A stretch of DNA of 64,000 nt, from positions 30,989 through 94,988 of the forward strand of contig JADGNZ010000005.1 in assembly GCA_017883205.1 (NCBI GenBank). Direction: 5' to 3'. The notes under the pieces are model-generated. The model was not told where the DNA came from. It was given only the letters and a program-made list of their open reading frames with translations, and did no database searches. A program made the translations under genes and the position numbers. The stretch's first letter is position 1; each line of letters begins with the position of its first letter. Below are positions 45,499-64,000 of the stretch, piece by piece. This DNA comes from Thermoanaerobaculia bacterium (GTDB taxonomy: Bacteria > Acidobacteriota > Thermoanaerobaculia > Gp7-AA8).

Positions 45499-45503
45499 CT
45501 CCC

Positions 45504-46292
45504 ATGTTGAAAGCACTGCTCACACGAGCGCGACAGGGCCATCGGACGATGCGCTATCCCGACGGGCCGGCGCCCCCCCTGCCGGCGCACTTCCGCGGTG
45601 TGCCGCGCATCGATCCCACCCGTTGTCCGGACGGGTGCCGCGTCTGCGCCGATGCCTGTCCGACGAACGCCATCACGGTCGCCGGCGGCACCGTTGCCCT
45701 CGATCTCGGACTTTGCATCTTCTGCCCGGAATGCGAGACGGCCTGTCCTGAGGGTGCGATCACGTTCACCGATGACTATCGCCTCGCCGCGCGCACGCGC
45801 GCCGATCTGCACCTTCTCGCGGGAGAGGAGCGGAGGCTCGCCGATGCACTCGACGCGAAGCTCCGGCGTTTGTTCGGACGCTCCCTCAAGCTCCGCGTCG
45901 TGAGTGCCGGCGACTGCAATGGCTGCGCGTCCGACGTCAACGTCCTCGGCACGATCGGCTGGGACATCGGCCGCTTCGGCATCCAGTACGTCGCCTCGCC
46001 GCGGCATGCGGACGGGATCATCATCGTGGGACCGGTCACGGAGAACATGCGGCTGGCGCTACGCAAGACGTACGACGCCATTCCCGCCCCGAAGATCGTG
46101 ATCGCGATCGGCGCATGCGCAATTTCCGGCGGCATCTACGCCGGTCATCCCGAACAGCAGGACGGCGTGGAAAGCATGCTCCCCGTCGATCTCTTCATCC
46201 CCGGCTGTCCGCCGCATCCCCTCACCATCCTCGACGGATTCCTCCGGCTCCTCGGGCGGATTGAGGGTGTCACCCACGGTGGACAGTCCTAA
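45504..46292 (+). CDS. Fusion of 2x[4Fe-4S] ferredoxin (NuoI/HycF-like) and NuoB/HycG-like small subunit (N2-type cluster ligands retained)
   Basis: CPDGCRVCADACP and CIFCPECETACP. Then GDCNGCASD...GACAISGG...PGCPPHP (NuoB/hydrogenase small-subunit signature). Confidence 0.85.
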   Translation: MLKALLTRARQGHRTMRYPDGPAPPLPAHFRGVPRIDPTRCPDGCRVCADACPTNAITVAGGTVALDLGLCIFCPECETACPEGAITFTDDYRLAARTRADLHLLAGEERRLADALDAKLRRLFGRSLKLRVVSAGDCNGCASDVNVLGTIGWDIGRFGIQYVASPRHADGIIIVGPVTENMRLALRKTYDAIPAPKIVIAIGACAISGGIYAGHPEQQDGVESMLPVDLFIPGCPPHPLTILDGFLRLLGRIEGVTHGGQS

Positions 46293-49377: not shown

Positions 49378-49675
49378 CCGCGGTCGTCACCAGACTTTGC
49401 CATGGGCAGCACGGTCACAGAACCGCGTCGTCGATCCGCTTTACTCCGCGGTGGACCTTGTGAAATGGATGGCACTCCCTGGCCGAAGATCGGATCGGTG
49501 TTACGCCACGGCCTGGATTCGCCGTTCGTCGTTCTCCTCCGCGTCTCAGGCGTTAAGAAGCGTCATTCGTCGCATGCTGCGTCATTCGCTCTCTTTCCAG
49601 CCGATACTCGGGCCACGGTTCGCAAGGAAAACACCTGCGAGGCACATGCGCACACGATCCAGCGGGGAGAGTCCA

Positions 49676-50092
49676 ATGAAACACACTGTGATGTTGACCG
49701 TCGCATCTCTGCTCTCGATCCTCTTCTTTACGCTTCACCTGGCGGACGACATCGTGCGCGGGTTCGAGCCGGGTACGCTCACAAACCTCATCGCGGTGCC
49801 CACCCTTGTCTTCTGGCTGTGTGGAACATTGATGCTTGCCGAGCGGCGATCGGGGTACATCATCACGCTCCTGGGAGGGCTCTTGTCCTCGCTCGTCCCA
49901 CTCGCCCACATGAGGGGGAAGGGTGTCGGCATCACCAGCAGAATCGCCAATTCCAATGGACATTTCTTCTTCGTCTGGGTGCTGTTCGCGATCGGCGTGA
50001 CCGGTCTCTTCTCCGTCATCCTCTCGGTGCACGGACTGTGGAGTCTGCGACGGGGACACGCCGATAGTTCTCCTCAGACGAGAGTCTCGTGA
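49676..50092 (+). CDS. Small integral membrane protein (~138 aa, 4 predicted TM helices), unknown function
   Basis: Start at ATG 49676 preceded by GGGGAGAG. The track ORF's first ~100 codons are Arg/Ser-rich junk. Hydrophobic segments LTVASLLSILFF, LIAVPTLVFWLCGTLML, IITLLGGLLSSLV, FFFVWVLFAIGVTGLFSVIL. GTGA-coupled to the esterase gene. Confidence 0.6.
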   Translation: MKHTVMLTVASLLSILFFTLHLADDIVRGFEPGTLTNLIAVPTLVFWLCGTLMLAERRSGYIITLLGGLLSSLVPLAHMRGKGVGITSRIANSNGHFFFVWVLFAIGVTGLFSVILSVHGLWSLRRGHADSSPQTRVS

Positions 50093-51084
50093 GCGTCATC
50101 CGCAGAGCTCTGCGTCTGTTCCTTCGGGGTGTGACCGTCGTTATTGTGCTGGTCGTGGTGCTGGCTGCGCTGTTCGGCTACTTCGTCTACACGCCTGCTC
50201 CTGAAGTGCCACGACTGTCCGGCACGCTGACCAGGGGAAGCATCGAGGTAGGTGGGCTGCAGCGGACTTACCGGACCTACGTGCCGCGGGGATTGGCAAG
50301 AGGAGCGCCGCTCGTCGTGGTGATGCACGGCGCGGGTGAAAACGGCGCGCAAATGCGGATCGAGACCGGATACGGGTTCGATCGGCTTGCGGACGAACAT
50401 GGCTTTGCGGTCGTCTATCCGAATGCATATGAGGGGTACTGGGACGTTTGCACCGTCGCCGAGGACGTCAGCGCGAACGGGCACAAGGTCGACGATGTCG
50501 GTTTCCTGACGGGGATGGTCGACAAGCTCGTTCGCGAAATCGGCGCCGACCCCAATCGCGTGTTCGCGGCTGGCAGTTCCCGCGGCGGTTTTATGACGTT
50601 TCGTCTGGCGCTCGAAGCTCCTTCCCGGTTTCGCGCAGTCGCAGCGGTGTCAGCGAACGTGCCGTCGCCGGAGAACTTCAAGTGCAAGCCCACGAGCGAG
50701 GGCACTCCTTCCGTGATGATCATGAACGGTACGGAGGACCCTCTCGTCCCGTTCGACGGTGGTTCGGTCAGCCTCTTCGGCTTGTTCTACAAGCTTGGCA
50801 AGGTCCGGTCGTCACGGGAGTCAGGCCAGTATTTTGCGGACCTCAACCACATCACGGGCACGCCTGAAACACAGCAGACCCAGGTGGCGGGCGGAGCCCG
50901 CGTGGAGCAGGTGCTCTGGCGCAACAACTCCAACGTGGAGGTGGAGCTCGTCGCCATTCACGGCGGTGGACATGGCATCCCTCAGCCGTACCGCCGTCGT
51001 CCGCGATTACTCGGCCCGTCGCCCATGGAACCGAACGGACCGGCGGTGATCTGGGCCTTTTTCGATCGACAGCGGCCCAGGTAG
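50089..51084 (+). CDS. Alpha/beta-hydrolase esterase of the PHB-depolymerase (LpqC-like) family
   Basis: N-terminal TM/signal segment. Conserved block VVVMHGAGENGAQM. Nucleophile elbow G-S-S-R-G (AAGSSRGGFM), which fits GxSxG. C-terminal HGGGHGIP. Confidence 0.85.
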   Translation: MSVIRRALRLFLRGVTVVIVLVVVLAALFGYFVYTPAPEVPRLSGTLTRGSIEVGGLQRTYRTYVPRGLARGAPLVVVMHGAGENGAQMRIETGYGFDRLADEHGFAVVYPNAYEGYWDVCTVAEDVSANGHKVDDVGFLTGMVDKLVREIGADPNRVFAAGSSRGGFMTFRLALEAPSRFRAVAAVSANVPSPENFKCKPTSEGTPSVMIMNGTEDPLVPFDGGSVSLFGLFYKLGKVRSSRESGQYFADLNHITGTPETQQTQVAGGARVEQVLWRNNSNVEVELVAIHGGGHGIPQPYRRRPRLLGPSPMEPNGPAVIWAFFDRQRPR

Positions 51085-51137
51085 TCACTCCTTTTCAGAT
51101 TAACCGCCGAAGAGAAAACGATGACCGGAGAGAGCAC

Positions 51138-51359
51138 ATGACCACGACGAGCAGGAACGCCAGAATCGCAGGGTTCCTCTATCTATTACTGGCGATCGCC
51201 GGCCCCCTCCGTTTCATGTACATTCCCGATACCCCGTTTGCGCATGGGAGCCTCACTCAGCTACTTGGTGTACGCCTGCAAATTCGGTCGGAACACCTGA
51301 GTGCTGATGCCGGGATGTTTGTTTTCGATCGTATCGTTGGCGGATTCTTCATCCTTTAA
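51138..51359 (+). pseudogene. Possible N-terminal remnant of a DUF4386-like membrane protein gene (MTTTSRNARIAGFLYLLLAIAGPL...), truncated after ~73 codons where it meets the 3' end of the convergent effector gene
   Basis: The N-terminus resembles the DUF4386 family start (recalled from memory, not searched). The ORF is short and overlaps the effector gene's 3' end by ~100 nt. The surrounding 51260-52100 segment is visibly less GC-rich. Confidence 0.35.
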
Positions 51360-53249
51360 GGGATGAAGAGCTTTCTGGTGTGCGTCGGTGCTATGCCAAG
51401 CGTTGATGTACTTTTCTCTCATTGTATTGATAATGCTTGGATAGCTCATCTCCCCAATACCGAAACCCTCGAAATACAATGTCTTACCATCTTTCCGCGT
51501 AAAGACGGCCCACTCTCCATTCCATAAGCCTGAAGGTGCTAATTCCCTGTAGTCGCGATAATTCACAAACGACACAGTGTCGCCTGGAACAAGGTCCTCT
51601 AGATTCGAAAGTCTCACCACACGCAGATATGGTTGCTTCGCACTGTTCACCGAGGATAGCAGAGGATGTTTCGTATTGCCGGAGTTATAGGATCCGGTTG
51701 GGTTTCCGACGATCATTTGTCCAAAATGAACGTCGAATGTCTTTGCACCAAACACGTTGAGTAACGATTGATAGTGTAGGAGGCCCGCTACGGTGGCACA
51801 GTCAGCAACGATTCTTTGTTCGAGAGGTTTTGGCAGCGTGACCTTCTCAATTGCTGCGGCGGCTCCCCCGCCGCGATTAAGCTGGAAGCCGCCAGGTGCG
51901 AATTTTGTATCTGTCGAAACAGGGGACCAGGCGGCCGTGTCCCGTAGGTCAAATCCCTTGTCTGTTGCTGTCGGGAATCGTCCGAATTGTGTATTGCTGT
52001 TATTGGCAAGCGATGCGTACAGTATGAGTGCTAAACGGTAGAGCACTTCGTTCGTGACGTCCGATGCCGAGTCAAAGTTAAAGTCGTAGTTTCGACGCTG
52101 TGATTCGAACTCGCCGACAACGGCCGCATAGCCCGATTTTTTCGAGGGGACTTCCTGTTGGGATTTGGCGTCCTGCATTTCTCGAAGGATCTGCGCCGCC
52201 CGCTTTTTCGCGGTCTCCTCCGTGAAGGGCATGTCTTTTGCCGAGTTGAACGACCCGCCCGTCTTCGATGTCAGACCCGCGACGACACCGGTGTACCAGG
52301 CGCTGACGCCAGCAGTCACTGCAGGCAACAGCTGTCCTGCTTTGGTTTTCTTTCCGCCGACGACGATCTTTCGTTGGACTGTGTCGGATGCAGATTGTGT
52401 GGTGTGGGCCAACTCGTGAGCTAGTAGATGGCGGCCTTCATTCGTGTCCGGGGCGTACTGGCCTCGCCCGAATACGATGTCCGTGCCCAGTGTGAACGCA
52501 CGCGACCCTGTGGCGTCGGCAATCTGTTCCGCCTCGTGGCCGACATGAATGCGCACGCCGCTAAAGTTTCGCCCGAATCGCGGTTCGAAGAACTGTCGCG
52601 TGGCGGTATCAAGAGGTTGGCCCGTCGAAGGTCGTGTTAAGCGTCCTCCACCGCCTCGGAGGGAGGGATTCTGGGTCTCAGGCTCAGGCGTCTGCATGAC
52701 CGAATCAGCTATGCGATCAGCCTCCTGCTCATGGAGATCTCCCGGTTCGCTCAGTCTCATTTCTCCGATTACCGCGCCGTCAAAGCGTCCCGGTACCCCA
52801 CGATGGGACGGCAGACCATTCGAGGTCGAGTGGTTACCTTCGCCGATATTCGTCTTCTTGTTGCCGCCAACAGGTCTTGTAATTTCCGGGGGGGCGGTCG
52901 CTCGGGTGTCGTGGTGAATATGCACGAGGCTGAGGTCGTGGCGGCCGAATGACTCCTGAATGCGGTCGAAGAACGGCAGTCTCTCCGTCGCACCGGCGTG
53001 AGCGCTGCTCACTGCTTCGTGAACCTTCTCCAAGTCAGCGGGCTCGCCTTCGCGTGAGTCGTGCCGCATCTGTAGCACCGGCGTCGTCGCGCGCACCGGG
53101 ACATGGCTGAAGTCGTGCTCGAAGCGTCCGGCGACCGAAGAAGCATGCGCCTGCGGAGCGTGCGATTGAACGCGCCGTGTCGGCGTCCAAGCACCATCTG
53201 CCGGTTCGGTGCTGGTTCCTGCTTTCCTCGATGTTCGAATAGCCTTCAT
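51261..53249 (-). CDS. eCIS-associated effector: N-terminal DUF4157 domain(s) with HExxH (zincin-like) motif + ~300-aa C-terminal domain of unknown function (lower GC)
   Basis: Start set to ATG 53249 (MKAIRTSRKAG...), 26 nt downstream of the preceding gene's stop. The track ORF extends to 53552 over the neighbouring gene in Arg-rich sequence. DUF4157 hallmark: FGRNFSGVRIHVGHEAEQIADATGSRAFTLGTDIVFGRGQYAPDTNEGRHLLAHELAHTTQ. Partial second copy upstream (AGRFEHDFSHVPVR). The C-terminal part contains DCATVAG...H...D candidates. Confidence 0.8.
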   Translation of the reverse strand: MKAIRTSRKAGTSTEPADGAWTPTRRVQSHAPQAHASSVAGRFEHDFSHVPVRATTPVLQMRHDSREGEPADLEKVHEAVSSAHAGATERLPFFDRIQESFGRHDLSLVHIHHDTRATAPPEITRPVGGNKKTNIGEGNHSTSNGLPSHRGVPGRFDGAVIGEMRLSEPGDLHEQEADRIADSVMQTPEPETQNPSLRGGGGRLTRPSTGQPLDTATRQFFEPRFGRNFSGVRIHVGHEAEQIADATGSRAFTLGTDIVFGRGQYAPDTNEGRHLLAHELAHTTQSASDTVQRKIVVGGKKTKAGQLLPAVTAGVSAWYTGVVAGLTSKTGGSFNSAKDMPFTEETAKKRAAQILREMQDAKSQQEVPSKKSGYAAVVGEFESQRRNYDFNFDSASDVTNEVLYRLALILYASLANNSNTQFGRFPTATDKGFDLRDTAAWSPVSTDTKFAPGGFQLNRGGGAAAAIEKVTLPKPLEQRIVADCATVAGLLHYQSLLNVFGAKTFDVHFGQMIVGNPTGSYNSGNTKHPLLSSVNSAKQPYLRVVRLSNLEDLVPGDTVSFVNYRDYRELAPSGLWNGEWAVFTRKDGKTLYFEGFGIGEMSYPSIINTMREKYINAWHSTDAHQKALHPLKDEESANDTIENKHPGISTQVFRPNLQAYTK

Positions 53250-53275
53250 GTGAAAAGCACCCCAAGTGCCGACTC

Positions 53276-54676
53276 CTACACCGGCGTCACCGGCGTCGCC
53301 CACTGCGCGAACCTGCTCCTCAAATCCGTTAGGGCGTTGTCGTTGAGCCGTACGCTCGCCAGCGGCGCGTAGTGGTGATCGACTCCGTTGGGCGGCATCG
53401 CACGCGGGGCGCCGTTGTCGTCGTTGGGCCAGACTGCGTTGCCGGTGGCGGTACGGGTGGGGATCAGCCAGTAGTCGCCGGTGCGGTAGGTTGCTTGCGG
53501 GGGCGAGACAAGGGAGAACTGGACCTGTACGCCGTCGGCAAGGTCGATCCATGGGTCGGTCGGGAGTGTGCGCGTGTCGATCGTGATGACGTTCGATGCC
53601 CAGCGGCGGAGGATGGGGCGTAGCGTGAGGTCGTTGCCTGTGTTGCCTATCGGGGGCGCGTTGAGCTTCACGGTCAGATCGTCGAGACCTACCCAGACGA
53701 CCTGGAGCAGCGGATTGGCGATGCCGTTATCGAGCACGTTGTCGTCGACGACTTCCACCCAATCGTTCACGCAGATCTGCGTACGGGCATCGCGGCCGAG
53801 GGAGTCGAGGTGGAGGATGACGCCCTCGATCTTTCGGATCGGATAGACGATCGAAGCGTTGTCGGCCGACCATTTAAACGTGGCCTGTTTGTCGGGATTA
53901 CCGGCCGGATCATGGATCTCGACGCGGAACAGACGGTTCTCCGTCCCGCGATAGAGCGCCTCGGGGGCGATCGTGCACGGGTCCGTCGATTCCGATTCGC
54001 TCGCTTTCGCGCGCATGCGGGCTCCGGTGCGCAGGAGAAGATTGAGCGCGATGTAACGGAGGTCCGCGCCGAGCGTCGAGACCGCGGTGGTGAGAGGCGG
54101 TTTCACCTGCGCCTGGTCGAGTGTCTTCAGCCTCCTGACGAGCACATCGAACGGCTGAAATGGCATCGCGCGCACCGTCCACTTCACGACGGCGCGGCTG
54201 CTCGTGTCGGGACCGAGGAGCGCGAGCTCGCGGATGCTGTCATCCTGTTCGGAGGAGACGTGGCGCTCGTAGACATCGAGATAGAACAACAGTGCCTGCT
54301 CGGCACCGCCCGCGCCATTGTTCATGTTGCTGGAGATCGTGATCGGCAAGCCGTATGTACGATTCTTGTCGTCCTGAATCGACTCCCAATAGTCAGCATC
54401 GGGAAGGTTGAGGCAGCGGATGCCGTCGACGTAGTACTGGCCCCATCGGAGCTGAAACGCATCCTTCACCAGCGGGCTGGAAAGGAGGATCTCGAAGCTG
54501 TCGTTCAGGCCGCCGTGCGGGCCGATGAGGTCGCGCCCGAGGCCGCGCAGGAAGCGCAGCAACGACTCGGTGTTCTCGTTGACGTCGCGGTCGAGTTGGA
54601 CGCGGCCCTGCTGGATGAGAACGCGTGAAACGGCCTCGTTGTAGTTGAAAGGATCCCAACTGAAATCGCCTTGCAT
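53276..54676 (-). CDS. 466-aa hypothetical protein of the eCIS locus (between baseplate genes and the effector); no P-loop, no recognisable family
   Basis: ORF with normal composition (MQGDFSWDPFNYNEAVSRVLIQQGRVQLDRD...), co-directional and tightly spaced with neighbours. Confidence 0.65.
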   Translation of the reverse strand: MQGDFSWDPFNYNEAVSRVLIQQGRVQLDRDVNENTESLLRFLRGLGRDLIGPHGGLNDSFEILLSSPLVKDAFQLRWGQYYVDGIRCLNLPDADYWESIQDDKNRTYGLPITISSNMNNGAGGAEQALLFYLDVYERHVSSEQDDSIRELALLGPDTSSRAVVKWTVRAMPFQPFDVLVRRLKTLDQAQVKPPLTTAVSTLGADLRYIALNLLLRTGARMRAKASESESTDPCTIAPEALYRGTENRLFRVEIHDPAGNPDKQATFKWSADNASIVYPIRKIEGVILHLDSLGRDARTQICVNDWVEVVDDNVLDNGIANPLLQVVWVGLDDLTVKLNAPPIGNTGNDLTLRPILRRWASNVITIDTRTLPTDPWIDLADGVQVQFSLVSPPQATYRTGDYWLIPTRTATGNAVWPNDDNGAPRAMPPNGVDHHYAPLASVRLNDNALTDLRSRFAQWATPVTPV

Positions 54677-54688
54677 GATGGCTCTCCC

Positions 54689-56857
54689 TCAGTCTGCGTA
54701 GATGATTCCGGTCTCCATGCCGGCGGGGGTTGCGTGATCGAGGCGGGCGCGCAGATTGGCCACCCGCTGGGGAAGAAACAGATCGTGGAACGCGCCCATC
54801 TCCGACTCGTCATCAGCGCCGCTGCTGATCTCGGAGGCGGTGCAGAGCGTGAGCTGGGCGTAAGCGGAATCGTCGAAGCGCATGCTGCCGAAGCGTGGCA
54901 CAACGCGGCGCTCCTCGGCGGCGAGTAGAGCATCGACGTTCTGCCCCGGCGCGGCGTGATCCCGCACTGCTTTCTCGACGAGATCGGGCTGGCAGTGATA
55001 GCGCCGCGGCGTACGCGAATCGGGCGGCACGTAGCAGAAACGCACACAGCCGCCCTGCCGCCGGACGATGCGCACGGCCGCGCCGAAGAGCGTGTTCTCG
55101 GCGAGCTCCATCGCGTGAGCAAGGACTTTCCCGAAGACCGTACAGCGGACGAAGCTGACCGCGGCCCAGGCGTAGCTTGATCCGGGACCGACGACGGCTT
55201 CCAGATCGTTCGAGGTGGCGTCGACGATCGAGTCACGCACGTCGATGGCGACCGGTTCCCCTTCCGCCGTTTCGTTCATCACCGCGATCGTCCCAACGAT
55301 GCTGCTCTGCACCGTCACGCGGCCCGTGAGGTTGTCGATCTCCAGGCTTGCCTCTGTTGGTGCCACGCAACTGCAGTCGGAGCGCAGGCTCCATCCCGGC
55401 ACGAGCGTGCAACGCTGCACCAGCACGCGCGCGCTGACCGGCTTGTCGCCTTTTCCTTCGACGCGCAGCGGACGGCCGGCCAGCACGATTCCGTCGAGCG
55501 TGAAGCGGGAGCCTTCGCTCATGATGACGCGCAGCGACTCGCCGCTCGACGGCTGGTAGTCGAGTACGCGGACGACGGGGCGGCAGCGATTGGCCGCGCG
55601 GATCTGCAGGCTCGTTCCCGCGTCGAGCGCAACGTCGATCTCGCCCGACTCGGTGTAGAAGCCGCTGTCTGCGATCTCGATGACGGCGTGCGCCGGCTTT
55701 TCGTCGAACCAATGCGCCAGCGCTTTCTGGAGAGTGGCGTGCTCCTCGTTCGGCCCGACGCGATAGAGCACGGCGTGCGACGGCTGCATGAGCGTGCGCG
55801 GCGACTCGTGCGCGCCAATGTCAGCGCTGAATCCGTAGCGGTAGGAGACGGCCACCTTCGCTTCGCGCGGCAGGGCGATCCGGCCGAGCTGGGGATCGAC
55901 GACCACTTTCCCGTCGGGCGGCCGGTACTTCCAGCCGGTCAGGTCGGCGGCGATGATGTCCTCCGCGCTCACCGGCGTGTCGGAGCCGTCGAGCCAGATG
56001 GCGAAACTCTTCGGCGTCCCGTCGGGCTCGAAGCCGTAGTAGTCGTCACGGTGCAGCTCGAGCGCGCGGCGGCGGATCGGCGCGGGCACGTTGACTTCAT
56101 CGGCGATGGTGGTGGGATCGGGCTCCGGCTCGGCGCGCGTGAAGAGCGGCGCGTCGTTGCCGAGCGCGCTGAACGTGTAGAAGTAGAAGCCGCTGCCGCG
56201 CTGCAGGAAGTAGGCGGGAGCGTGCGTGACCGGAAAGGCGCGCAGGCGCCAGACGTATGCGGCGGCGTTGGGGATGTTGTGGCGGCCGGGATTGCGCGCG
56301 GCGTTGATGTTGCGGACGTCGATGGTGTGGCCGCTGCGGTCGAAAGGCGTGTCGATCAGGTCGAGCGCCTCGCCGTCGCGCAGATCGAGAAGACGGCCGC
56401 GGGCGTCGGTGCGGGAGACGAGCTGCGTTCTGCCGAGGAGTGTGAAGAACTCGACGGCGCGCGAAGGGAAGCCGGCGGAATCGTTGGCGAGCTGCTCGAC
56501 GAGCGCCAGCGTCCCGCGGCGGCGCAGGCTGCGCAGGTAATTCGCCACGTCGCGTCGCGGCGCGGCGGCTCGGGCGCGCAGCCGGGTCTCCGCGGCAGAG
56601 TCGCTGCCGTCGTCGACGAACGGAACGGCGCTGTAGCCGGCGAGATCGCCGATGTAGGGCACGATCCAGTCGCGGCAGGTCTCGATGAACCAATCGTCGT
56701 ACATCTGCGCGATGTCGTCCTCGATGACGTTGACCTGCTCCGCGATCACGCGCAGCAGACCGCGCAGCGGATAGCCCTGAGCGACGTCGCGCTGGCGATA
56801 GACGGCCGGCAGCAACGCGTACAGGCGGTCGATGCGGTCCTGCGTGGGCTCAGTCAT
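54689..56857 (-). CDS. 722-aa baseplate-distal protein with phage P2 gpI-like (tail protein I) N-terminal region
   Basis: Start moved to MTEPTQDRIDRLYALLPAVYRQRD (ATG ~56857, ATGA overlap with the upstream gene). 'LYALLPAVYR...LLRVIAEQVNVIEDDIAQMYDDWFIETC..WIVPYIGDL' resembles the gpI family N-terminus (from memory). Confidence 0.65.
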   Translation of the reverse strand: MTEPTQDRIDRLYALLPAVYRQRDVAQGYPLRGLLRVIAEQVNVIEDDIAQMYDDWFIETCRDWIVPYIGDLAGYSAVPFVDDGSDSAAETRLRARAAAPRRDVANYLRSLRRRGTLALVEQLANDSAGFPSRAVEFFTLLGRTQLVSRTDARGRLLDLRDGEALDLIDTPFDRSGHTIDVRNINAARNPGRHNIPNAAAYVWRLRAFPVTHAPAYFLQRGSGFYFYTFSALGNDAPLFTRAEPEPDPTTIADEVNVPAPIRRRALELHRDDYYGFEPDGTPKSFAIWLDGSDTPVSAEDIIAADLTGWKYRPPDGKVVVDPQLGRIALPREAKVAVSYRYGFSADIGAHESPRTLMQPSHAVLYRVGPNEEHATLQKALAHWFDEKPAHAVIEIADSGFYTESGEIDVALDAGTSLQIRAANRCRPVVRVLDYQPSSGESLRVIMSEGSRFTLDGIVLAGRPLRVEGKGDKPVSARVLVQRCTLVPGWSLRSDCSCVAPTEASLEIDNLTGRVTVQSSIVGTIAVMNETAEGEPVAIDVRDSIVDATSNDLEAVVGPGSSYAWAAVSFVRCTVFGKVLAHAMELAENTLFGAAVRIVRRQGGCVRFCYVPPDSRTPRRYHCQPDLVEKAVRDHAAPGQNVDALLAAEERRVVPRFGSMRFDDSAYAQLTLCTASEISSGADDESEMGAFHDLFLPQRVANLRARLDHATPAGMETGIIYAD

Positions 56858-59800
56858 GCTTTGATCTCCGTGAGGATGAAGAGGTCGGCCAGTTCCGCCG
56901 GCAGATAGGCGATCTCCGCGGCGGCGTATTGCGGAAGGTCGCCGGTTTTCGACGGCATCACGACGCATGCGAAGTGCGGAAGGATCGAAGGGCTGACGCA
57001 GACTTTTGGCGCTGGTGCTGCTTGCGTGGTTCCCGAGCCCATCGCCACGCCCGTTGCGACGCCGGAGAGGGCGGCGTTATCGGTGAGAACGCCGTCGCGA
57101 AGGATGTCCTCCCAGCGGATGCCGGCGAGCTCGTCGAGGTCGACGTACACGACCCCCGGCACGCTCTGAATCGTCGCAATCACCTCGGCTGCGTAAACCG
57201 GCTGGCCGAAGCCGCGGCGGTCGTACGAGAAGGTGTCGAGCAGCGCGGCGCGGATCTTCGGCGCTACCAGCGGCCAGAGGTAGTCCGGACCGACGCGCAC
57301 GCGGGCCGAGCCGGTCATCACCAGTTTTTCACGTACCTTGACGACGAACGGCTGATAAGGATCGCCGTACTTGCGCAGCGCTTCGGTGAGGTTGCGGAAA
57401 AGATCGGAGGTCTCGTCGATGTCGATGTCGCCGGTCCCGCCGATGGTGAGGTGTACGAAACGGCGGCGGCCGTCGGAGAGCGCAGTGGCGGTGGCTTTGG
57501 CAATGCCGCCGAACGTCCGCGCGAAGTCGGCGAAGTCGCTGACGGAAACGACGCGGCCCATGGCCTGAAGCGACACGGGGATATTGCCTCGCGCATCGTC
57601 GCGCGACTCGCGGGCGGCGCCTCCGCTGGCCTCGATCGGATTGATGACGTCGTGCACGCCGGCGGGGCGCGAGATGGCCGTGGCGATCTGACTGGCGCGC
57701 ACGTTTCCGTCAGGCCCGATTCCGTTGCGATACGCCGCGCGGACGTTGTCGCTGCCGGTGAAGGGCCTCTGCCCGTGCCGGCCGTCGCCGAATGTGATCG
57801 AGACTTTGTCGTCGTCGCCGGTCTTCGTCACGAAGACGCGGTCGGCCGGTCCGGCGTCCGCGAGTGAATCCGTCTCGTGCCAGAGCACGTCGTCGACGCG
57901 TACGGCGAGCGTGGAGCGGACGCCCTCGACGGTCGGCGCCGAAACGAACGTCAGAGGCGCGTGGCGGAGCTTGAAGGTCTGCATCGCCTTCGACGCATCG
58001 CCGCCGCCAAGGATTTCGAACTGGCTCTCGCCGTGCGTGGCCGGAGCGATGTTGCCGAGGATGGCCACGCTGCTCCGATCGTACTGGAAGGCCAGGCCTT
58101 TCGGAGCGAGGACGAGGACGGTGTGTGGCGTGCCTCCCGGACCGGCGTCGGTCTGCTGCTCGACGTTGTCGATCATGGCCAGCTCCGCGGCAACGACGCC
58201 GTGCGTGCCGCCCGTATCGACGCGGTTGCCGCGCACGATGACGCGGTGTCCGGCAGCCAGTCCTGCGACGACGGCATCGAGCTCGATGCGCGTCTCCGAT
58301 TCGCCCGCAACTTCGTTTGCGTCGGCGGGCATGCCGACCGGGCGCGTGACGGGCTGCTGCGCCAGCGGCAGCAACTCGCTTTCGACGAGGACGGAGGTGG
58401 CGCGAATGAATTTGAGGTTGTTGGTCAGATTCCCAAGGCTGGTGTGATTAGGGTCAGGGGTTTGAGGCATCGGGTCGAAGTGGCCGACCCACGGAGCGTC
58501 CAGCGTCAGCGTCGTGCTCCTTCCGCTGATGCCGTAGGCGGTCAACGGGCCGGTCTCCACTTCGGTCACCGTCGAGACGCGCGTACCGAATTGATTTCGC
58601 GTGACGGCATAGCTCCCCGTCGTGATGGCTTCGTCCGCAGTATCGAGATGAAGGATGGTTTCTGTCTCGGTGAAGGGCGACGGAAACGGCGGCGCTGCGG
58701 CCGCGCGAGCCGCCGGCCGGTCTTCGAAAAGCACCGCCGGCGCGTTGTAGCCGAAGACGTTCGCGCGGCGGCGCAGAACGTAGACGCCGCGCAGCTGTTC
58801 GTATGGTTTTTCGCCGGTGCAGAGATTGGCGAGCGCTCCGTAAAGCGTCGTTGCGAGCTGCGGACGGAACGCCGTGAGCAGCCGCTGTCGGTAGTCGTAA
58901 CGTGGATTCCGGACCTCGGCGAACGAGCGCGTGAAGTCGAACGCGCTGGGCGGCGCGACACCGCGCGCCGTCGTCAGAGGCTTGAGAAAATCGCTCAGCG
59001 TGGGGACGGCGCATCGGACCTTGACGTTCGACGGCTCTTCATCGATGGCGATCAACGCGTCGCGAATAGTGGCGTGAAAATCGGAGAAGTTTGTCTGCAG
59101 CACGGAGTGAGGGGTGCCGAGGAGAATCTGTCGCTTCAGCTCGATCAGCATGTCGTTCGAGCGGGTACCGGACGCTGCCAGCGCCACCGTTTTGGCCGAG
59201 ATCTTTTTTTTCGTTTTCGCTTTGCCGCGCGCTTTGACGATTGCGGGAGCCACGGGCACCGCGGCCGGCGTCGCAGGTTGGGCGGCTATGGCCTGCGAGA
59301 CAGCCAGATAGAGCCTGGCGTAGTCCGGTTGTACCGGCTCTAGTTGCAGCTCGGTGCGATCGTGCTCGGTGTCGGGCACAGCTTTCAAGACGCGGCGGAT
59401 TGCGTGATACGTCTGGCCGGTGGCATCGAGGACGAACAGCAGCGGATCGCGCGGCTGGAACTGCTTGTCCGTTCCGTCGACCCAGACCGAGGTGATCGTC
59501 AGGACGTTGTCGACGAGCACGGTCTGCGGACGGCTCATGCGCGGCTTGAGCGCGTTCCACGCTCCGCGCGCTTCGATGTCCTCGGAGGTCTCGAACGTCT
59601 GCGCCTGCTCGTCCTTGCGCGCGGGAATGCTCTGCGCTTTCGAGCCGGCCGGGATGGTTGTGATCGCGTCATCGTCGAGCGTGTAGGCGAGATGCACGCT
59701 GGACGCGACGCCGGGCTTGAGCGTGTAGTCGACGAGACGTCCGAGCTCCAGGATCGATCGCCGTTCCGTTGCTGTCCGCAGGTAGCCCTCGGTGGCGATG

Positions 59801-60054
59801 CGCTCCTGGTAGAACGTGAGCACGTCACCGGCGACGGCCCACGCGTCGAGCAGCGCCATGGCCGGATCGTCCGGCTCGCGTGTCGTCAACGCAGGAATCG
59901 CGTCCGGCAGGCCGCGGACCATGGCGTCGAGGAACGTGCCGTAGGTGCCGGCGCGGTAGTGGATCGCGGAGAGGCCGGGGCGATTTGTCGCGCCGAGGTG
60001 CTCGCCCGCGCCTTCGAGACAGGCGCAGCAACCGCATGAACCGGCCGCGCTCAT
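56854..60054 (-). CDS. 1066-aa Baseplate_J-like (gp6/gpJ family) baseplate wedge protein
   Basis: gpJ-like C-terminal signature ...ASQIATAISRPAGVHDVINPIEASGGAARESRDDARGNIPVSLQAMGRVVSVSDFADFA... . Cys-rich N-terminus MSAAGSCGCCAC. Overlaps the upstream gene stop by 4 nt. Confidence 0.75.
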   Translation of the reverse strand: MSAAGSCGCCACLEGAGEHLGATNRPGLSAIHYRAGTYGTFLDAMVRGLPDAIPALTTREPDDPAMALLDAWAVAGDVLTFYQERIATEGYLRTATERRSILELGRLVDYTLKPGVASSVHLAYTLDDDAITTIPAGSKAQSIPARKDEQAQTFETSEDIEARGAWNALKPRMSRPQTVLVDNVLTITSVWVDGTDKQFQPRDPLLFVLDATGQTYHAIRRVLKAVPDTEHDRTELQLEPVQPDYARLYLAVSQAIAAQPATPAAVPVAPAIVKARGKAKTKKKISAKTVALAASGTRSNDMLIELKRQILLGTPHSVLQTNFSDFHATIRDALIAIDEEPSNVKVRCAVPTLSDFLKPLTTARGVAPPSAFDFTRSFAEVRNPRYDYRQRLLTAFRPQLATTLYGALANLCTGEKPYEQLRGVYVLRRRANVFGYNAPAVLFEDRPAARAAAAPPFPSPFTETETILHLDTADEAITTGSYAVTRNQFGTRVSTVTEVETGPLTAYGISGRSTTLTLDAPWVGHFDPMPQTPDPNHTSLGNLTNNLKFIRATSVLVESELLPLAQQPVTRPVGMPADANEVAGESETRIELDAVVAGLAAGHRVIVRGNRVDTGGTHGVVAAELAMIDNVEQQTDAGPGGTPHTVLVLAPKGLAFQYDRSSVAILGNIAPATHGESQFEILGGGDASKAMQTFKLRHAPLTFVSAPTVEGVRSTLAVRVDDVLWHETDSLADAGPADRVFVTKTGDDDKVSITFGDGRHGQRPFTGSDNVRAAYRNGIGPDGNVRASQIATAISRPAGVHDVINPIEASGGAARESRDDARGNIPVSLQAMGRVVSVSDFADFARTFGGIAKATATALSDGRRRFVHLTIGGTGDIDIDETSDLFRNLTEALRKYGDPYQPFVVKVREKLVMTGSARVRVGPDYLWPLVAPKIRAALLDTFSYDRRGFGQPVYAAEVIATIQSVPGVVYVDLDELAGIRWEDILRDGVLTDNAALSGVATGVAMGSGTTQAAPAPKVCVSPSILPHFACVVMPSKTGDLPQYAAAEIAYLPAELADLFILTEIKA

Positions 60055-62909
60055 CGTCCACCTCCCACGGCCGCGAAGACGAGCAGGCCGTTCTCCGGTA
60101 CTGCCGGATCGTTGTCGAGACGCGCGATCTCGTTCGGCCCGAGCTTGAGCAATCCATCCGCAAAGTCGGGATTGCCTCGCGACTCATCCGCCAGCCGTTC
60201 CAGCCGGGCCACGCAGACTTTCGCCACGCCGTCGACGGCCATGACCGCGGCGACGATGCGGCTGACGTAGACGGCTTCGCCGAACGAGAGATTGTCGGGA
60301 TGGAAGAAGCCGAGGCGGCCGTCTGGCAGCGCGCGGTTGCTCAGCGCGTCGCGCACAGCGGCCACGACATGTGCGCGCAGATGGTGTGCCTGCACGAGAA
60401 GCTCAAGCTCGATCCGCAACGGAACGGAATCGGCGCGGCCGACGCGAAGGTCGTGTCCCATTCGCCGGTAGCGATGGAGCAGGCCGGCGACCGAGGTCTG
60501 CAAATCGGCGTCAAGATCCGAAGTACCGAATTCGTCGACGGCGACGTCGGCTTCGTACCAGCTCCGGTTCCAATAGAGATTGCCAGCTGCAGCCTGCACG
60601 CGCGGGTTGCGCGCCGGGAAACGGAGGTACTGCGCGAGCGTGGCGTAGTCGCCGGCGGTGACGGCGCGCTGCAGGTCTTTGCGCACGGCGGCCGGCGCGA
60701 TGGCCTTCACTTCCGCGACCGATTCAGGATCGACGGCGCCGGCGGATGGAAGCGGATTGCGAACGAGTGTGACGCCGTCGTTGAAGCCGCTGCGGAAGAC
60801 GACGTGCGCGATCGCCTCGGGTCCGACGAGTCCTTCCCGTCCGTTTCCGGTTCGATAGGTGGCGACGAACGACATGCCGGCTTCGACAGCGCGGCCGGTG
60901 TCGCCATCGCCAAATCTGAGGTGCGCGAGGCCGGCATCATCGACCTCGGCGACAAAATGCGGATCGTCGCCGCTGTCGAGCAGGTCGGCGCGCGGCGACC
61001 AGATTTCCATCAGCCCGCGCAGGTTGGCTTCGAGCAACGCCTCGAGATCCGGCGTGTCCTTGCCCGCATCGAGCAGCTTGACGACCTCGGGGCGCAGTCT
61101 GCGCCGCAGCGCCAGCAGGAGGCGTTGCTCCGGCTCCGGTTTCAACAGTGAGCTGGCGAGCGCGTGGATGTCGCGCAGTTCGTCGGGGCGGAAGAGCGAC
61201 GGCGCATCATCGTCATCCGCTGGATCGCCGGCGAAGAGCGCGGGAGGAATGCTTCCCGCGGTGATTGCAGGCCGCGCGGCGCGTGCGTTTTGCTGCATCA
61301 CTGCCGAGGCGGAGGCGCTGGCAGCGAGCGGCTCGGCGAACGTGAGCGGACCGCGGGTGAGCACAGGACGATAGCGGCCCGTCACGCGCGCGCGCTCGGC
61401 CGGCGTGCCTTCGCCTTCGCAATGATCGGCGAACGGGAGCTCGAGGATGGGAGCAAGCGGCTCATCGGAAATCGTCGCGCCGTGATCGGCGAGCACGATG
61501 TTGCCGCGCGCGACGCCGAGGTCCTTCTGGAATTCGCAATCGGGCGCGGCGCCGACCGCGGAGACGCAGAGCGCGAACGGCAGCGCATCCTCGCGGCTCC
61601 ACTCCACTTCGAGCACGCGATTGCCGAGGAGCGGATCGCAACAGGGGGTGACCTTCGTCAGTCGTACCACATGGCGATGCGTGCGGTCGCCGCCGGGCTC
61701 CTCGAAGAGCAGGAAGTCGCCGGGCTCGAGTCGCAGGATGTTGGCGTGGGGCGGCTCGGGTGGCGGTGGTGGTGGCGGACATCCGCAGCCGTCGTAGTGC
61801 TTGTGCGGCGGCGGACCTCCGCAGAGATCGGGATCGTACTTGTTGTTTTCCTGCGGCTCGTCGAGCAGCGTCGTGCGCGTGGCGCCGCGCGGGATGCAGC
61901 ATTCCTTGTCGCCCCAGGTGTAGATGTGAATGAGGTTGTGTACTTCGTGGAGCTTGATCGTGGTCTTGTCCGTGAGCGGCTCGAAGGCGAGCCAGCCGGG
62001 CGGCAACTTCTCGAGGTCGGAGGCGCGCAGCGCCGCCGGCGCGGACGATCCGGCCGGACGGGTGATGAAGTAGATGTTGCGCGGATCGAGCTCCGGATCG
62101 CCCGTCACGCGCAGTTCGAGAAAGACGCGGGCGTTGCAGCCGTCGTGCATCGCGTAGTCGATGAGCCGCACGTGACGGCGCACGGAGGTGCGCTGCCGCG
62201 CGGTGTCGAGATACTGCTCGGTGCCGACGGCGTCAAGGTAGTAGCTGAGATAGTCGGCGGTGTATGCGAGAACTTCGACGATGGCGATGCCGACGTCGGG
62301 CACATGCCGCTCGCGCCAGTCGGGCATGACCAGCGAGAGTCGATCGAGGATGAGTTGCCGGAAGGAGGTGTAGTCCCGGGCAAGGTAAGAGATCGGCGGT
62401 TTGGGCCGGACCTCGGTTGGGCACGGAGCTTCCGATTTGCAGTCGATTTCCGCGGGGCAGTCGGCCTTGAACGTGAAGCCGGCGCAGGCATAGCGCCGGT
62501 CGAGCGATTTCAACGGCTCGTCCGTGGGCTCGCCGCTCTTTTCATCGACTTCGACGAAGCAGATCGTGTACTCCGACCAGTCGCCTTCCTTGTTCACGGT
62601 GATGCCGAGGCAACTCTCGTCGAATCGCGTCGCGGCCGGTTTGGTATCGAAGTCGATGGCGTTGATGCCGGTGATCCGGCGCCCGCCACGGATGAAAATG
62701 TGCCGCAATGCCGCTTTCTTTTCATCGGGCGTGAGCGGCTTCCCCTTTTGCGGCCCGTCGGTAGCGGGCAGAAACTCGAGCGGGATCCCGGTCAGGAAGT
62801 GGACGCAGAGGTGCGAGCCGTGGACGTCGATGTAGTCGAGTCCATTGAGGCTCTGCTCGCGGATGAGCTGGCGGCGATGCTCGTCGCAGCAGGTCAGGCC
62901 GGCGGTCAT
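60051..62909 (-). CDS. 952-aa second Baseplate_J-like baseplate protein
   Basis: Start moved to MTAGLTCCDEH (ATG ~62909, ATGA overlap with the gp25-like gene). The track ORF's first 44 codons are Arg-rich and would overlap gp25 by 135 nt. gpJ-like motif ...GLVGPEAIAHVVFRSGFNDGVTLVRNPLPSAGAVDPESVAEVKAIAPAAVRKDLQRAVTAGDYATLA. Contains a Pro-rich Cys/His patch (CGGPPPHKHYDGCGCPPPPPPPEPPH). Confidence 0.75.
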   Translation of the reverse strand: MTAGLTCCDEHRRQLIREQSLNGLDYIDVHGSHLCVHFLTGIPLEFLPATDGPQKGKPLTPDEKKAALRHIFIRGGRRITGINAIDFDTKPAATRFDESCLGITVNKEGDWSEYTICFVEVDEKSGEPTDEPLKSLDRRYACAGFTFKADCPAEIDCKSEAPCPTEVRPKPPISYLARDYTSFRQLILDRLSLVMPDWRERHVPDVGIAIVEVLAYTADYLSYYLDAVGTEQYLDTARQRTSVRRHVRLIDYAMHDGCNARVFLELRVTGDPELDPRNIYFITRPAGSSAPAALRASDLEKLPPGWLAFEPLTDKTTIKLHEVHNLIHIYTWGDKECCIPRGATRTTLLDEPQENNKYDPDLCGGPPPHKHYDGCGCPPPPPPPEPPHANILRLEPGDFLLFEEPGGDRTHRHVVRLTKVTPCCDPLLGNRVLEVEWSREDALPFALCVSAVGAAPDCEFQKDLGVARGNIVLADHGATISDEPLAPILELPFADHCEGEGTPAERARVTGRYRPVLTRGPLTFAEPLAASASASAVMQQNARAARPAITAGSIPPALFAGDPADDDDAPSLFRPDELRDIHALASSLLKPEPEQRLLLALRRRLRPEVVKLLDAGKDTPDLEALLEANLRGLMEIWSPRADLLDSGDDPHFVAEVDDAGLAHLRFGDGDTGRAVEAGMSFVATYRTGNGREGLVGPEAIAHVVFRSGFNDGVTLVRNPLPSAGAVDPESVAEVKAIAPAAVRKDLQRAVTAGDYATLAQYLRFPARNPRVQAAAGNLYWNRSWYEADVAVDEFGTSDLDADLQTSVAGLLHRYRRMGHDLRVGRADSVPLRIELELLVQAHHLRAHVVAAVRDALSNRALPDGRLGFFHPDNLSFGEAVYVSRIVAAVMAVDGVAKVCVARLERLADESRGNPDFADGLLKLGPNEIARLDNDPAVPENGLLVFAAVGGGR

Positions 62910-63265
62910 GATGTGCTCCGTTCGAAGGTGTCGGTGTGAACGTCGCCGGTGCGGCGAAGGGCGTAGCGGACGAGGACGCGTAGCGTCGAATCTTCGGCGA
63001 CGACTTCCAGCGCCTGCAGATCGAGGACGTCGCCGAGCCATTGCTGGATGGCGGCGCGCGTTGTGAACTGCAGCGCGGCGGCGAGCTCGGGACTGTTCGG
63101 CGCGAAGACGAGCTGCAGCAAGCCGCTGCCGAACTCGGGCCGGTTCACGCGCTCGCCCGGATTGGTGAAGAGCAATTGCTCGAGCATGCCGCGCACGTGC
63201 GCCGCGTCATCGCACGAGGCAGTGCGGCCCCGCTCATCGAAGTGGAAGGGAAAATCGATGTTCAT
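62906..63265 (-). CDS. gp25/GPW-family baseplate protein (lysozyme-like fold; Afp9/TssE-like)
   Basis: MNIDFPFHFDERGRTASCDDAAHVRGMLEQLLFTNPGERVNRPEFGSGL... matches the GPW_gp25 pattern (FPF.FD..G......I...I...L.T..GER...P.FG). Confidence 0.8.
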   Translation of the reverse strand: MNIDFPFHFDERGRTASCDDAAHVRGMLEQLLFTNPGERVNRPEFGSGLLQLVFAPNSPELAAALQFTTRAAIQQWLGDVLDLQALEVVAEDSTLRVLVRYALRRTGDVHTDTFERSTS

Positions 63266-63272
63266 CGCATCC

Positions 63273-63599
63273 TCATTGCGCGGTCACCCGGACCTGGTTG
63301 GGTATGACGATCAGAGGCGTGCCGTTCGGCGTGGAAATGCCCTGACTGTCGGCGAGCAGAAGCGGCTGGCCGCCGGCCTGTACGCGCGTCGCGGCGGTGG
63401 TGAATTGCGCGGTCACGCAGGGAGGGCTGCCGCCGCTGGTCATCGCCGGGAAGGTGCAGCCGGCCACCATGTATGCGGTGGAGAGCACGACCACCGGCTG
63501 CCCGCCGATGGAGACGCGCGGATTAGGCGTCACCGGCGTGGCCGCACCGAGGTGCGCGCACTGGATCGTGGTCGTCGCTATCAGGACGGGGCCGGGCAT
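63273..63599 (-). CDS. PAAR-domain spike-tip protein
   Basis: 108 aa, Gly/Pro/Thr/Val-rich with PAAR-like segments (...GGQPVVVLSTAYMVAGCTFPAMTSGG...GGQPLLLADSQG...). Confidence 0.75.
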   Translation of the reverse strand: MPGPVLIATTTIQCAHLGAATPVTPNPRVSIGGQPVVVLSTAYMVAGCTFPAMTSGGSPPCVTAQFTTAATRVQAGGQPLLLADSQGISTPNGTPLIVIPNQVRVTAQ

Positions 63600-63614
63600 G
63601 TCGTCTCCTGTCGT

Positions 63615-64000
63615 TCAGATGATGGTCAGCGCGCCCTTGTTCACGTTGACGTTGGGCCCGATCATCACGATCGACGCCCCCTTGCCGTTATCGATGTAGA
63701 TGCCGGTGTCGTTCACGGTGATCGAAGCGCCGGTGAGCGACTTGAGGATGATTCCGCCGGTGGGGCCGGGGAGGTCGCTGATGACGATGCGGTTCTGCAG
63801 GGTCGTCTGCAGAACGATGCTCGGGCTGATCGGATTGTTCGTCGCCGCCGTCATCTTGGCGTCGCTCGGCATCTCCGACTCCATCCCCCAGAAGCAGCCG
63901 GTCCAGATGGGATAGTCGGGATCGCCGCCCTCGAACTCGATCCACACGCCTGATCCGAGTTGCGGGAGATACGAGATGCCCTGCAGTTTTCCGGCGATCG
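63615..64000 (-). CDS. Baseplate central spike (P2 gpV / VgrG / Phage_GPD-like), C-terminal part; 5' end beyond window
   Basis: Translation continues upstream of the track's Met to the window edge (...IAGKLQGISYLPQLGSGVWIEFEGGDPDYPIWTGCFW...). 'VWIEFEGGDPDYPIW' is the gpV/VgrG OB-fold signature. The C-terminal Gly/Asn/Ile-rich repeats (GIYIDNGKGASIVMIGPNVNVN) look like spike beta-helix sequence. Confidence 0.75.
   Translation of the reverse strand, partial: IAGKLQGISYLPQLGSGVWIEFEGGDPDYPIWTGCFWGMESEMPSDAKMTAATNNPISPSIVLQTTLQNRIVISDLPGPTGGIILKSLTGASITVNDTGIYIDNGKGASIVMIGPNVNVNKGALTII

Follow-up and report, generated by a model that had tools for sequence, protein, structure and literature searches.

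Introduction

Extracellular contractile injection systems (eCIS) of the Afp/PVC/AlgoCIS type (Cis1–16) encode a spike, a PAAR-like tip, gp25, a gpJ-type wedge, a fibre-type protein, and a 3′-terminal DUF4157 toxin-type gene. All of these have counterparts at positions 51261–64000 of a 64,000-nucleotide (nt) stretch of Thermoanaerobaculia DNA (contig JADGNZ010000005.1), which was analysed here as a whole and is referred to as the window. The sheath, the gp19 tube, the Pvc16_N cap, and the AAA+ ATPase are also common to both, as found in the nearest relative of the window locus. Very probably, the region represents the 3′ half of a single operon that encodes a contractile injection system (CIS) of the eCIS superfamily (Afp/PVC-like) with a terminal cargo, located in the chromosome of a probable Thermoanaerobaculia bacterium. 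It differs from the Afp/PVC/AlgoCIS systems in gene order, as the sheath, tube, cap, and ATPase genes come first here, the DUF4157 gene or genes occupy the middle, and the baseplate genes come last. Moreover, those systems have a single Cis11/Cis12 pair (PMC12237407) and an Afp13-like fibre, whereas the locus described here has two J paralogues (J1 and J2), a beta-helix protein of 722 amino acids (aa), and a DUF6519/eBAP5 protein.

A second point of comparison is the CIS of Streptomyces coelicolor (CIS-Sc, 9GTP). Its baseplate wedge consists of two Cis11 and one Cis12, as in the R2 pyocin (PMC12237407), which is the stoichiometry that we propose for J1, J2, and the 722-aa protein. However, both Cis11 subunits of CIS-Sc are copies of a single 652-aa protein, whereas J1 and J2 are diverged paralogues of 952 and 1066 aa. 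In addition, CIS-Sc, which works in the cytoplasm, lacks fibre genes, whereas the locus of the window encodes a DUF6519 protein. The literature describes DUF6519, under the name eBAP5, as a domain that anchors fibres to the baseplate and that marks eCIS loci (PMC12923769).

For DUF4157, published work describes a role as a marker of eCIS loci and as a tag of their toxins (PMC8213781, PMC11297309). The closest validated precedent for the cargo of the window is EAT14 of Chitinophaga rupis, which combines DUF4157, LysM, and Transglut_prok and shows Cys/His/Asp-dependent toxicity to E. coli and yeast (PMC11297309). It shares with the window cargo a DUF4157 at the N-terminus and a cysteine enzyme of the transglutaminase-like kind at the C-terminus, and its gene lies downstream of an eCIS operon. 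However, the enzyme of EAT14 is of the Streptomyces-MTG type (PF09017, Cys-His-Asp, like 5m6q), whereas that of the window is predicted to be of the Bacillus Tgl type (PF20085, NlpC/P60-like core, Cys/Glu), and LysM is present in EAT14 but not in the window cargo; the two are set apart here by domain type. The spore-coat Tgl proteins of Bacillus subtilis and Geobacillus (4P8I, 7C9J) have the same predicted fold as the window domain (template modelling score to the target, 0.68 and 0.80, respectively), and their conserved [ED]-C and G-E-N/W motifs align with its putative catalytic Cys and Glu. The identity is only 15–16%, and the window cargo has, in addition, insertions and about 85 aa of extra helical sequence at the N-terminus. 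Moreover, Tgl is a sporulation protein, whereas the window domain forms one protein with DUF4157 and is encoded in an injector operon. No Tgl-type domain was found as an eCIS cargo in the literature searched. The locus offers a candidate new cargo class, the Tgl-type transglutaminase, and a well-resolved soil example, from Thermoanaerobaculia (Acidobacteriota), of a widespread but little-studied eCIS lineage.

Gene Content of the Locus and of Its Relatives

Genes were assigned by profile searches against Pfam, NCBIfam, and PHROGs, which in the window covered the larger open reading frames (ORFs). The region 51261–64000 contains eight minus-strand ORFs running in one direction (Table 1), with a high third-position GC content (GC3) in all but the last. 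At the gp25/J1, J1/J2, and J2/722-aa junctions, the stop codon of one gene overlaps the start codon of the next in an ATGA, and the remaining gaps are only 7–26 nt long, indicating that the genes form one operon. The spike, the PAAR-type tip (recognized through its orthologues), gp25, and the J-type wedge genes share this operon. All eight genes are intact, with coupled starts and a high GC3 in the structural genes. The original prediction, in which the region had been read from the DNA alone as the distal half of an eCIS with a terminal DUF4157 effector, had listed eight co-directional genes; all of them are present at the positions claimed, with annotations much as claimed. These include two Baseplate_J-like giants of 952 and 1066 aa, which both match TIGR02243 and are paralogous, and the 3′-terminal 662-aa protein with DUF4157 and an HExxH motif.

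Table 1. Features of the injection system locus in the window.
Feature	Position	Strand	Evidence and remarks
gpV/VgrG-like spike, partial	63615..64000	-	Phage_base_V E 3e-9; C-terminal 127 of 174 aa, truncated at window edge
PAAR/DUF4280-like spike tip, 108 aa	63273..63599	-	No family match of its own; assigned through orthologues
gp25/gpW-like baseplate protein connecting to sheath, 119 aa	62906..63265	-	GPW_gp25 E 5e-17
J1, gpJ/gp6/Cis11-like baseplate wedge, 952 aa	60051..62909	-	TIGR02243 E 6e-74; phrog_219 baseplate wedge E 6e-16; PDB 9gtp Cis11 E 1e-6
Pro-rich Cys/His patch in J1, aa 363-388	61746..61823	-	Lineage-specific variable loop
J2, paralogous baseplate wedge, 1066 aa	56854..60054	-	TIGR02243 E 3e-66; Baseplate_J E 1e-4; phrog_219 and phrog_6
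722-aa conserved baseplate protein	54689..56857	-	No family match of its own; weak N-terminal Mu gp48/P2 gpI-like similarity and central right-handed beta-helix
DUF6519 (eBAP5) fibre/crown-like baseplate-anchored protein, 466 aa	53276..54676	-	DUF6519 E 3.5e-60
Cargo, DUF4157 (eCIS_core) and predicted Tgl-like transglutaminase, 662 aa	51261..53249	-	eCIS_core E 1e-30; TGL E 9e-15
DUF4157/eCIS_core domain, aa 212-287	52389..52616	-	HELAH aa 278-282 (window 52404-52418)
Predicted Tgl-like transglutaminase domain, aa 346-616	51402..52214	-	Cys484 (51798-51800), Glu579 (51513-51515)

The closest retrievable relative of the locus is found in a 62,213-bp forest-soil contig from ENA (L039, L041, L042), which shows 84% nucleotide identity to the window across the 10.8-kb structural module. 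At the protein level, the identity is 95% for VgrG, 93% for the tip, 92% for gp25, 86% for J1, 81% for J2, 90% for the 722-aa protein, and 76% for the DUF6519 protein. The locus of this relative begins with an AraC-type helix-turn-helix gene, followed by genes for a 528-aa sheath protein (Phage_sheath_1/1C), a 171-aa gp19 tube protein (Phage_T4_gp19), and a 242-aa T4_baseplate-like protein. After a stretch without a gene call come a 428-aa Pvc16_N cap protein, a 730-aa ATPase with winged-helix (WHD) and AAA domains, an 80-aa gene, a 698-aa DUF4157 protein, a 216-aa gene of the CIS_tube-like family, a 114-aa gene, and a 375-aa gene; then VgrG, tip, gp25, J1, J2, the 722-aa protein, and DUF6519 follow, and a 528-aa DUF4157 protein closes the series. 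The locus is bordered on both sides by unrelated chromosomal genes. Thus, the sheath, tube, and AAA+ genes that were looked for upstream are present in the 84%-identical relative, alongside the Pvc16_N cap, and the reading of the region as the distal half of an eCIS is supported by a full locus without head genes. However, sheath and tube had been expected just beyond the right edge of the window, whereas in the relative they are found about 10–12 kb upstream of VgrG, from which they are separated by the genes for the cap and the ATPase, by a DUF4157 gene, and by three small baseplate/tube-initiator genes. In the close Thermoanaerobaculia relatives L003, L005, and L034 from GTDB, several DUF4157/LysM proteins fill the interval from the ATPase to the baseplate genes, and therefore sheath and tube are about 10 kb or more from VgrG. 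A more distant locus, from a metagenome-assembled genome (MAG) of Mucilaginibacter (L018), contains NusG/RfaH-like, sheath, gp19, T4_baseplate, Pvc16_N, and AAA genes, and then the same baseplate block; two other loci (L037 and L038) agree with this.

No capsid, terminase, or portal genes were present in the gene tables of about 39 kb around the locus of the ENA relative, and no capsid, terminase, portal, or integrase families were detected among the larger window ORFs scanned, although a few of these ORFs, among them one of 1741 aa, matched no family at all. The absence of capsid, terminase, and integrase genes, to which the original prediction had appealed, thus holds for the scanned ORFs and for the surroundings of the nearest relative's locus.

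The gene cluster of the source organism itself continues past the window edge. A Logan contig of 32,280 bp (L001) matches window positions 48808–64000 with 100% identity and adds 676 bp, which complete the 174-aa VgrG and show part of the 375-aa upstream gene; in a homology search with this gene fragment, the best match was 72% identical. The source NCBI contig (173,697 bp) carries the complete VgrG gene and a gene for a 217-aa CIS_tube-like protein. The family match of the latter (E 0.002) is below the cutoff, but the protein shares a 90% cluster with the 216-aa protein of the ENA relative, which is direct evidence for the continuation of the cluster. The nearest species-representative genomes are MAGs of Thermoanaerobaculia, with 76–84% identity in VgrG.

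When window proteins were used as tblastn queries, the order 375-aa gene–VgrG–tip–gp25–J1–J2–722-aa gene–DUF6519 was found to be kept in about 30 out of 37 loci. These syntenic loci belong to Acidobacteriota, Bacteroidota, Actinomycetota (Kitasatospora), Alpha-, Beta-, and Gammaproteobacteria, Chloroflexota, Deinococcota, and an archaeon (a Methanosarcinales MAG). The baseplate had been described as unusually elaborate; with the same order syntenic in so many loci and phyla, it is instead the norm of its lineage. The large double-J baseplate, together with the beta-helix protein and DUF6519, is a conserved plan of this eCIS lineage.

Proteins of the Baseplate and the Spike

J1 and J2 are related to each other (BLASTP E 3e-11), with 27% identity in a C-terminal block and 25% in an N-terminal block. 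Both match PHROG baseplate wedge families, and each weakly matches Cis11 of the S. coelicolor CIS baseplate (E about 1e-6 over 80–180 aa). As both match Cis11, and as the wedge of that system contains two Cis11, J1 and J2 would be the heterodimeric equivalent of the Cis11 pair. By analogy, their heterodimer probably stands in for the (gp6)2 or (Cis11)2 pair of the conserved wedge core, with the 722-aa protein probably at the gp7/gpI/Cis12 position.

In the loci for which gene sizes were read, J1 is 850–1000 aa and J2 is 960–1080 aa long. J1 has a 170-aa Cys-rich N-terminal domain that ends with CPxDxDC...C, and the N-terminus of J2 begins with a CGCC(A/E)C motif; both features are conserved across phyla. 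We observed these N-terminal Cys motifs in proteins from Acidobacteriota to Actinomycetota and an archaeon. A Pro-rich Cys/His patch, which the original prediction had singled out as a peculiarity of the baseplate, is indeed present in J1, between the conserved motifs WGxxxCCxPxGAT and LxPGDxLLFEE. However, its length and sequence differ even within Thermoanaerobaculia, and it is absent from Bacteroidota and Kitasatospora. The patch is thus a variable loop and not a conserved metal site, and its reading as a metal-binding element was rejected.

The 722-aa protein belongs to a family of more than 4079 clusters (90% identity clusters, E<=1e-10) from many phyla, for which there is no Pfam domain, NCBIfam model, or informative name. 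Its named homologues are also from Thermoanaerobaculia, and no relatives of the family were found among the 2.9 million contigs of IMG/VR. The AlphaFold2 (AF2) model of the protein has a mean predicted local distance difference test (pLDDT) score of 66, and the confident prediction is limited to a beta-rich region in the centre, a pectate-lyase-type beta-helix. Fold searches with this model returned beta-helix enzymes and tailspikes only, because the N-terminal part is modelled at low confidence. The protein itself did not match Tail_P2_I, TIGR02242, or Phage_Mu_Gp48 in searches of Pfam, NCBIfam, and PHROGs, and neither single-sequence nor profile searches against PDB sequences gave a match. 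Among 40 of its homologues, 17 matched Phage_Mu_Gp48, which we take to be the Mu counterpart of P2 gpI, although all below the threshold (best E 0.0042). The label "gpI-like" given to the protein earlier is, on this sequence evidence, plausible for the N-terminus only, whereas the part that is modelled confidently is the beta-helix. The poorly modelled C-terminal 120 aa contain invariant Cys604, Cys608, and Cys622, and a DDESEMGAFH motif; judging from these residues, they may be a small metal-binding module.

The 466-aa protein encoded downstream, previously listed as unknown, is a DUF6519 protein, and hence has a published counterpart in the eBAP5 fibre baseplate anchor (PMC12923769). Besides the strong Pfam match, it resembles this anchor in its position after the wedge genes, where it would be expected. 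It differs in that its 466 aa are essentially the anchor domain alone, without a long C-terminal receptor-binding extension. The DUF6519 protein is the least conserved of the structural proteins in comparison with the ENA relative, and such a fast evolution fits a role in target recognition.

As to the spike complex, the matches of the window spike to vgr_GE and VI_Rhs_Vgr are below the cutoff. The tip sequence has no Pfam match of its own at E<=0.1, and its PDB match to the phiKZ PAAR protein is weak (E 0.055). Of its 29 orthologues, 18 match DUF4280 (PF14107, best E 4e-6) and 12 match PAAR_motif (PF05488, best E 5e-5). Residues C14, H16, C48, and C61 are invariant among the orthologues, and the tip gene directly follows VgrG in all loci. 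Neither the 174-aa spike nor the 108-aa tip carries a toxin extension, and therefore the cargo is not spike-fused; a search for a linkage of an effector to the spike tip or PAAR protein thus gave a negative result for both proteins.

The Terminal Cargo Gene

The last gene of the operon contains both DUF4157 and TGL. Its eCIS_core domain (PF13699, formerly DUF4157) scores 106 bits against a cutoff of 22 and includes the HExxH motif. The Pfam TGL domain (PF20085), which was absent from the original prediction, scores 55 bits against a gathering score of 23.7. The family delineated by the C-terminal 363 aa is small: out of 1.84 billion representatives, 85 matched at E<=1e-3. Out of 50 members scanned, Pfam TGL was found in 48 and eCIS_core in 13. 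The C-terminal domain was modelled by AF2 with high confidence (pLDDT 94.3), and the only significant PDB matches of the model in Foldseek were Tgl of Bacillus (4p8i, E 1.4e-9) and of Geobacillus (7c9j, E 1.8e-8). In support of that, the family profile matched the same two structures with E values of 5e-25 and 3.9e-30 (the latter for 7c9j), and its alignment with 7c9j placed "ldC" over "feC" and "GEnA" over "GENT". A search of the PDB with the single sequence of the effector gave only a chance match to a capsid protein (E 0.25), and the family profile was needed to reach Tgl.

Two residues of the family, Cys484 and Glu579 (C185 and E280 in the family numbering), are near-invariant and align with the "EC" and "GEN" motifs of Tgl. 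As Fernandes et al. reportedly found in 2015, Cys and Glu at those positions are the catalytic pair of Tgl. The C-terminus of the cargo is thus predicted, on the strength of the model, to have a Tgl-like transglutaminase fold that keeps the catalytic Cys/Glu pair. The protein failed the cutoff of the NCBIfam equivalog for the spore-coat Tgl, NF002869 (30.6 bits versus 307), and so it is a distant member of the family and not an orthologue of the spore-coat protein.

The similarity between the window and the ENA relative stops exactly at the stop codon of the DUF6519 gene. The product of the relative's terminal gene has only the DUF4157 core in common with the cargo of the window (34% identity), and its C-terminus is different. 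Moreover, whereas GC3 is 0.81–0.86 in the structural genes, the cargo gene reaches only 0.64 in its N-terminal and 0.58 in its C-terminal part. Because of this low GC3 and of the different C-terminus in the nearest relative, the cargo is, as judged from sequence, a horizontally exchanged cassette. The sharp boundary at the DUF6519 stop codon, together with the drop in GC3, illustrates cargo exchange between near-identical machines, which is of relevance to the engineering of programmable injectors. As the association of DUF4157 with eCIS toxins is published, the N-terminal region of the cargo, together with its DUF4157, would mediate loading.

The start of the effector gene differs between annotations. 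In the Logan annotation, it is a GTG at 53303, giving a 680-aa protein and a 28-nt overlap with the DUF6519 gene; in the NCBI annotation, it is an ATG at 53249, 26 nt after the DUF6519 stop codon, giving 662 aa. Neither start is preceded by a strong Shine–Dalgarno sequence, and a scan of the minus strand around the cargo gene for promoters and terminators gave nothing useful. Between aa 40 and 115, the effector contains two extra copies of the N-terminal motif of DUF4157, GRFEHDFSHVPV at about aa 42 and SFGRHDLSLVHIHH at about aa 101, both without HExxH. These copies precede the full DUF4157 domain, and a similar FRADFTGVP occurs near aa 35 of the terminal effector of the ENA relative.

Genes for DUF4157 proteins were also noted in groups elsewhere. 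In an unrelated Logan contig from another organism (L043, 3589–11686), genes for an AAA ATPase, a 618-aa DUF4157-TGL protein, a 662-aa DUF4157-Aspzincin_M35 protein, a 252-aa RHS/YD-like protein, and a 561-aa DUF4157-TGL protein stand together; the last of these is overlapped by 4 nt by a 253-aa gene, which could encode an immunity protein. In three GTDB relatives, three or four large DUF4157 proteins are encoded between the AAA ATPase and the baseplate genes (L034, 99–7770; L005, 2–4434; L003, 667–7252), some with two DUF4157 copies or a C-terminal LysM, and an Lgt-like gene is also found there. These intervals look like an internal cargo array, to which the lineage of the window appears to add a cargo slot kept after DUF6519.

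Proposed Function and Alternative Readings

In the particle that we envisage, a VgrG-like trimeric spike would carry a Zn-type PAAR/DUF4280-like tip, gp25 would join the sheath to the baseplate, and a J1/J2 heterodimer would form the wedge core together with the 722-aa protein. The DUF6519 protein would extend outward from the baseplate and serve to sense the target, and the beta-helix protein would likewise face outward. Contraction of the sheath would then drive the spike and the tube into the target, where the Tgl-like domain would covalently modify proteins by Gln–Lys cross-linking or deamidation, or possibly act as a papain-like protease. Going further, the Tgl-type (NlpC/P60-core, Cys/Glu) domain may constitute a so far undescribed class of injected eCIS toxins, an exchangeable DUF4157-tagged cassette that kills or reprograms targets by isopeptide cross-linking or deamidation; separately, the 722-aa beta-helix family may be a tailspike-like, glycan-binding or glycan-cleaving wedge element of the whole eCIS lineage. 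We put these two proposals forward jointly and tentatively, at somewhat short of an even chance.

Several points weigh against reading the region as the distal half of an eCIS operon. The sheath, tube, cap, and ATPase were seen only in the 84%-identical relative and not in the source organism itself, and no protein of the source contig falls into the 90% identity cluster of the relative's sheath protein. Among the proteins of the window, those of 108 and 722 aa stay below every family threshold, and the placement of J1, J2, and the 722-aa protein in the wedge is inferred from other systems. DUF4157 has no established role in the literature, and no immunity gene follows the cargo gene; a missing adjacent immunity gene is common for eCIS-associated toxins (EATs) (PMC8213781). 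Finally, related actinobacterial CIS act within the producer cell, so that extracellular delivery by this locus is only inferred. The last point bears on the main rival explanation, according to which the locus encodes a cytoplasmic or membrane-anchored CIS, like CIS-Sc of Streptomyces or the thylakoid-anchored tCIS of Anabaena, that would fire inside its producer and cause regulated cell death or developmental effects, with the DUF4157-Tgl protein acting on the cell's own proteins. The same syntenic module is indeed found in three Kitasatospora loci (L014, L019, and L020), J1 and J2 match Cis11 of a system that is cytoplasmic, and, besides the lack of an adjoining immunity gene, neither the window nor the locus of the relative showed a gene for lysis or for a holin. 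However, CIS-Sc lacks fibre genes (PMC12237407), whereas a DUF6519/eBAP5 anchor and a tailspike-like beta-helix protein are encoded here. Moreover, the cargo differs between close relatives, which is typical of antagonistic effectors, and no CisA-like membrane adaptor turned up, although no search was aimed at one. We consider a system of this kind unlikely.

That the 90% cluster of the sheath protein lacks a member from the source contig would also be expected of a degenerate or orphan baseplate island that has lost its sheath and tube half and makes no particle. This is very improbable, as the eight genes are intact, with a high GC3 and coupled starts, the VgrG, 375-aa, and CIS_tube-like 217-aa genes continue upstream on the source contig, and a second assembly of the same organism extends a further 16.4 kb upstream. 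Least probable of all is a prophage tail module or an R-type tailocin, in which the DUF4157 protein would be a morphogenetic protease or an unrelated neighbour. The gp25, Baseplate_J, Phage_base_V, and PHROG wedge families are all common to myophage tails, and a Bro-N protein is encoded 17 kb away in the window, but capsid, portal, terminase, and integrase genes are missing from the scanned ORFs and from the approximately 39 kb around the relative's locus. Furthermore, the relative has Pvc16_N, AAA+/WHD, and DUF4157 proteins, eCIS hallmarks that do not occur in phage tails or pyocins, the 722-aa family has no relative in IMG/VR, and the C-terminal enzyme domain of the cargo differs between relatives. 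As the loci of the ENA relative and of the Mucilaginibacter MAG show the published eCIS hallmarks (PMC8213781), a prophage tail is effectively ruled out. A type VI secretion system was rejected as well, since no membrane-complex or ClpV genes were found among the scanned window ORFs or around the relative's locus. Taken together, these results favour an eCIS. Apart from its mildly novel cargo domain, it is an ordinary, well-described system; the locus is a modest addition, and the current understanding of eCIS is unchanged by it.

Other Genes in the Window

To the left of the module lie a convergent esterase gene and genes for a histidine kinase, a Uma2 nuclease, and a respiratory complex. The other ORFs scanned are mostly metabolic or regulatory, apart from those for a giant Ig/PKD-repeat protein and the Bro-N protein. 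The latter, whose domain family is common in phages and mobile elements, is encoded on the minus strand at 34284–34910 and stands isolated among respiratory and regulatory genes, with no further phage gene nearby. Giant ORFs occupy the minus strand at 2–6298 (at least 2099 aa, open at the left edge), 8743–13968 (1741 aa), and 14799–21593 (2264 aa). The first of them has only weak matches to DUF6603 and 3keto-disac_hyd, the second has no Pfam matches, and the third contains Ig_7, PKD, and CarboxypepD_reg repeats; the GC content falls to 0.55–0.60 between and inside the three. On the plus strand, positions 35547–46292 contain a large cluster of genes for Mrp-antiporter/complex-I-like subunits (two Proton_antipo_M, NADHdh, a Complex1_49kDa/30kDa fusion, and Oxidored_q6 with Fer4), which resembles a membrane-bound hydrogenase or formate hydrogenlyase-type complex.

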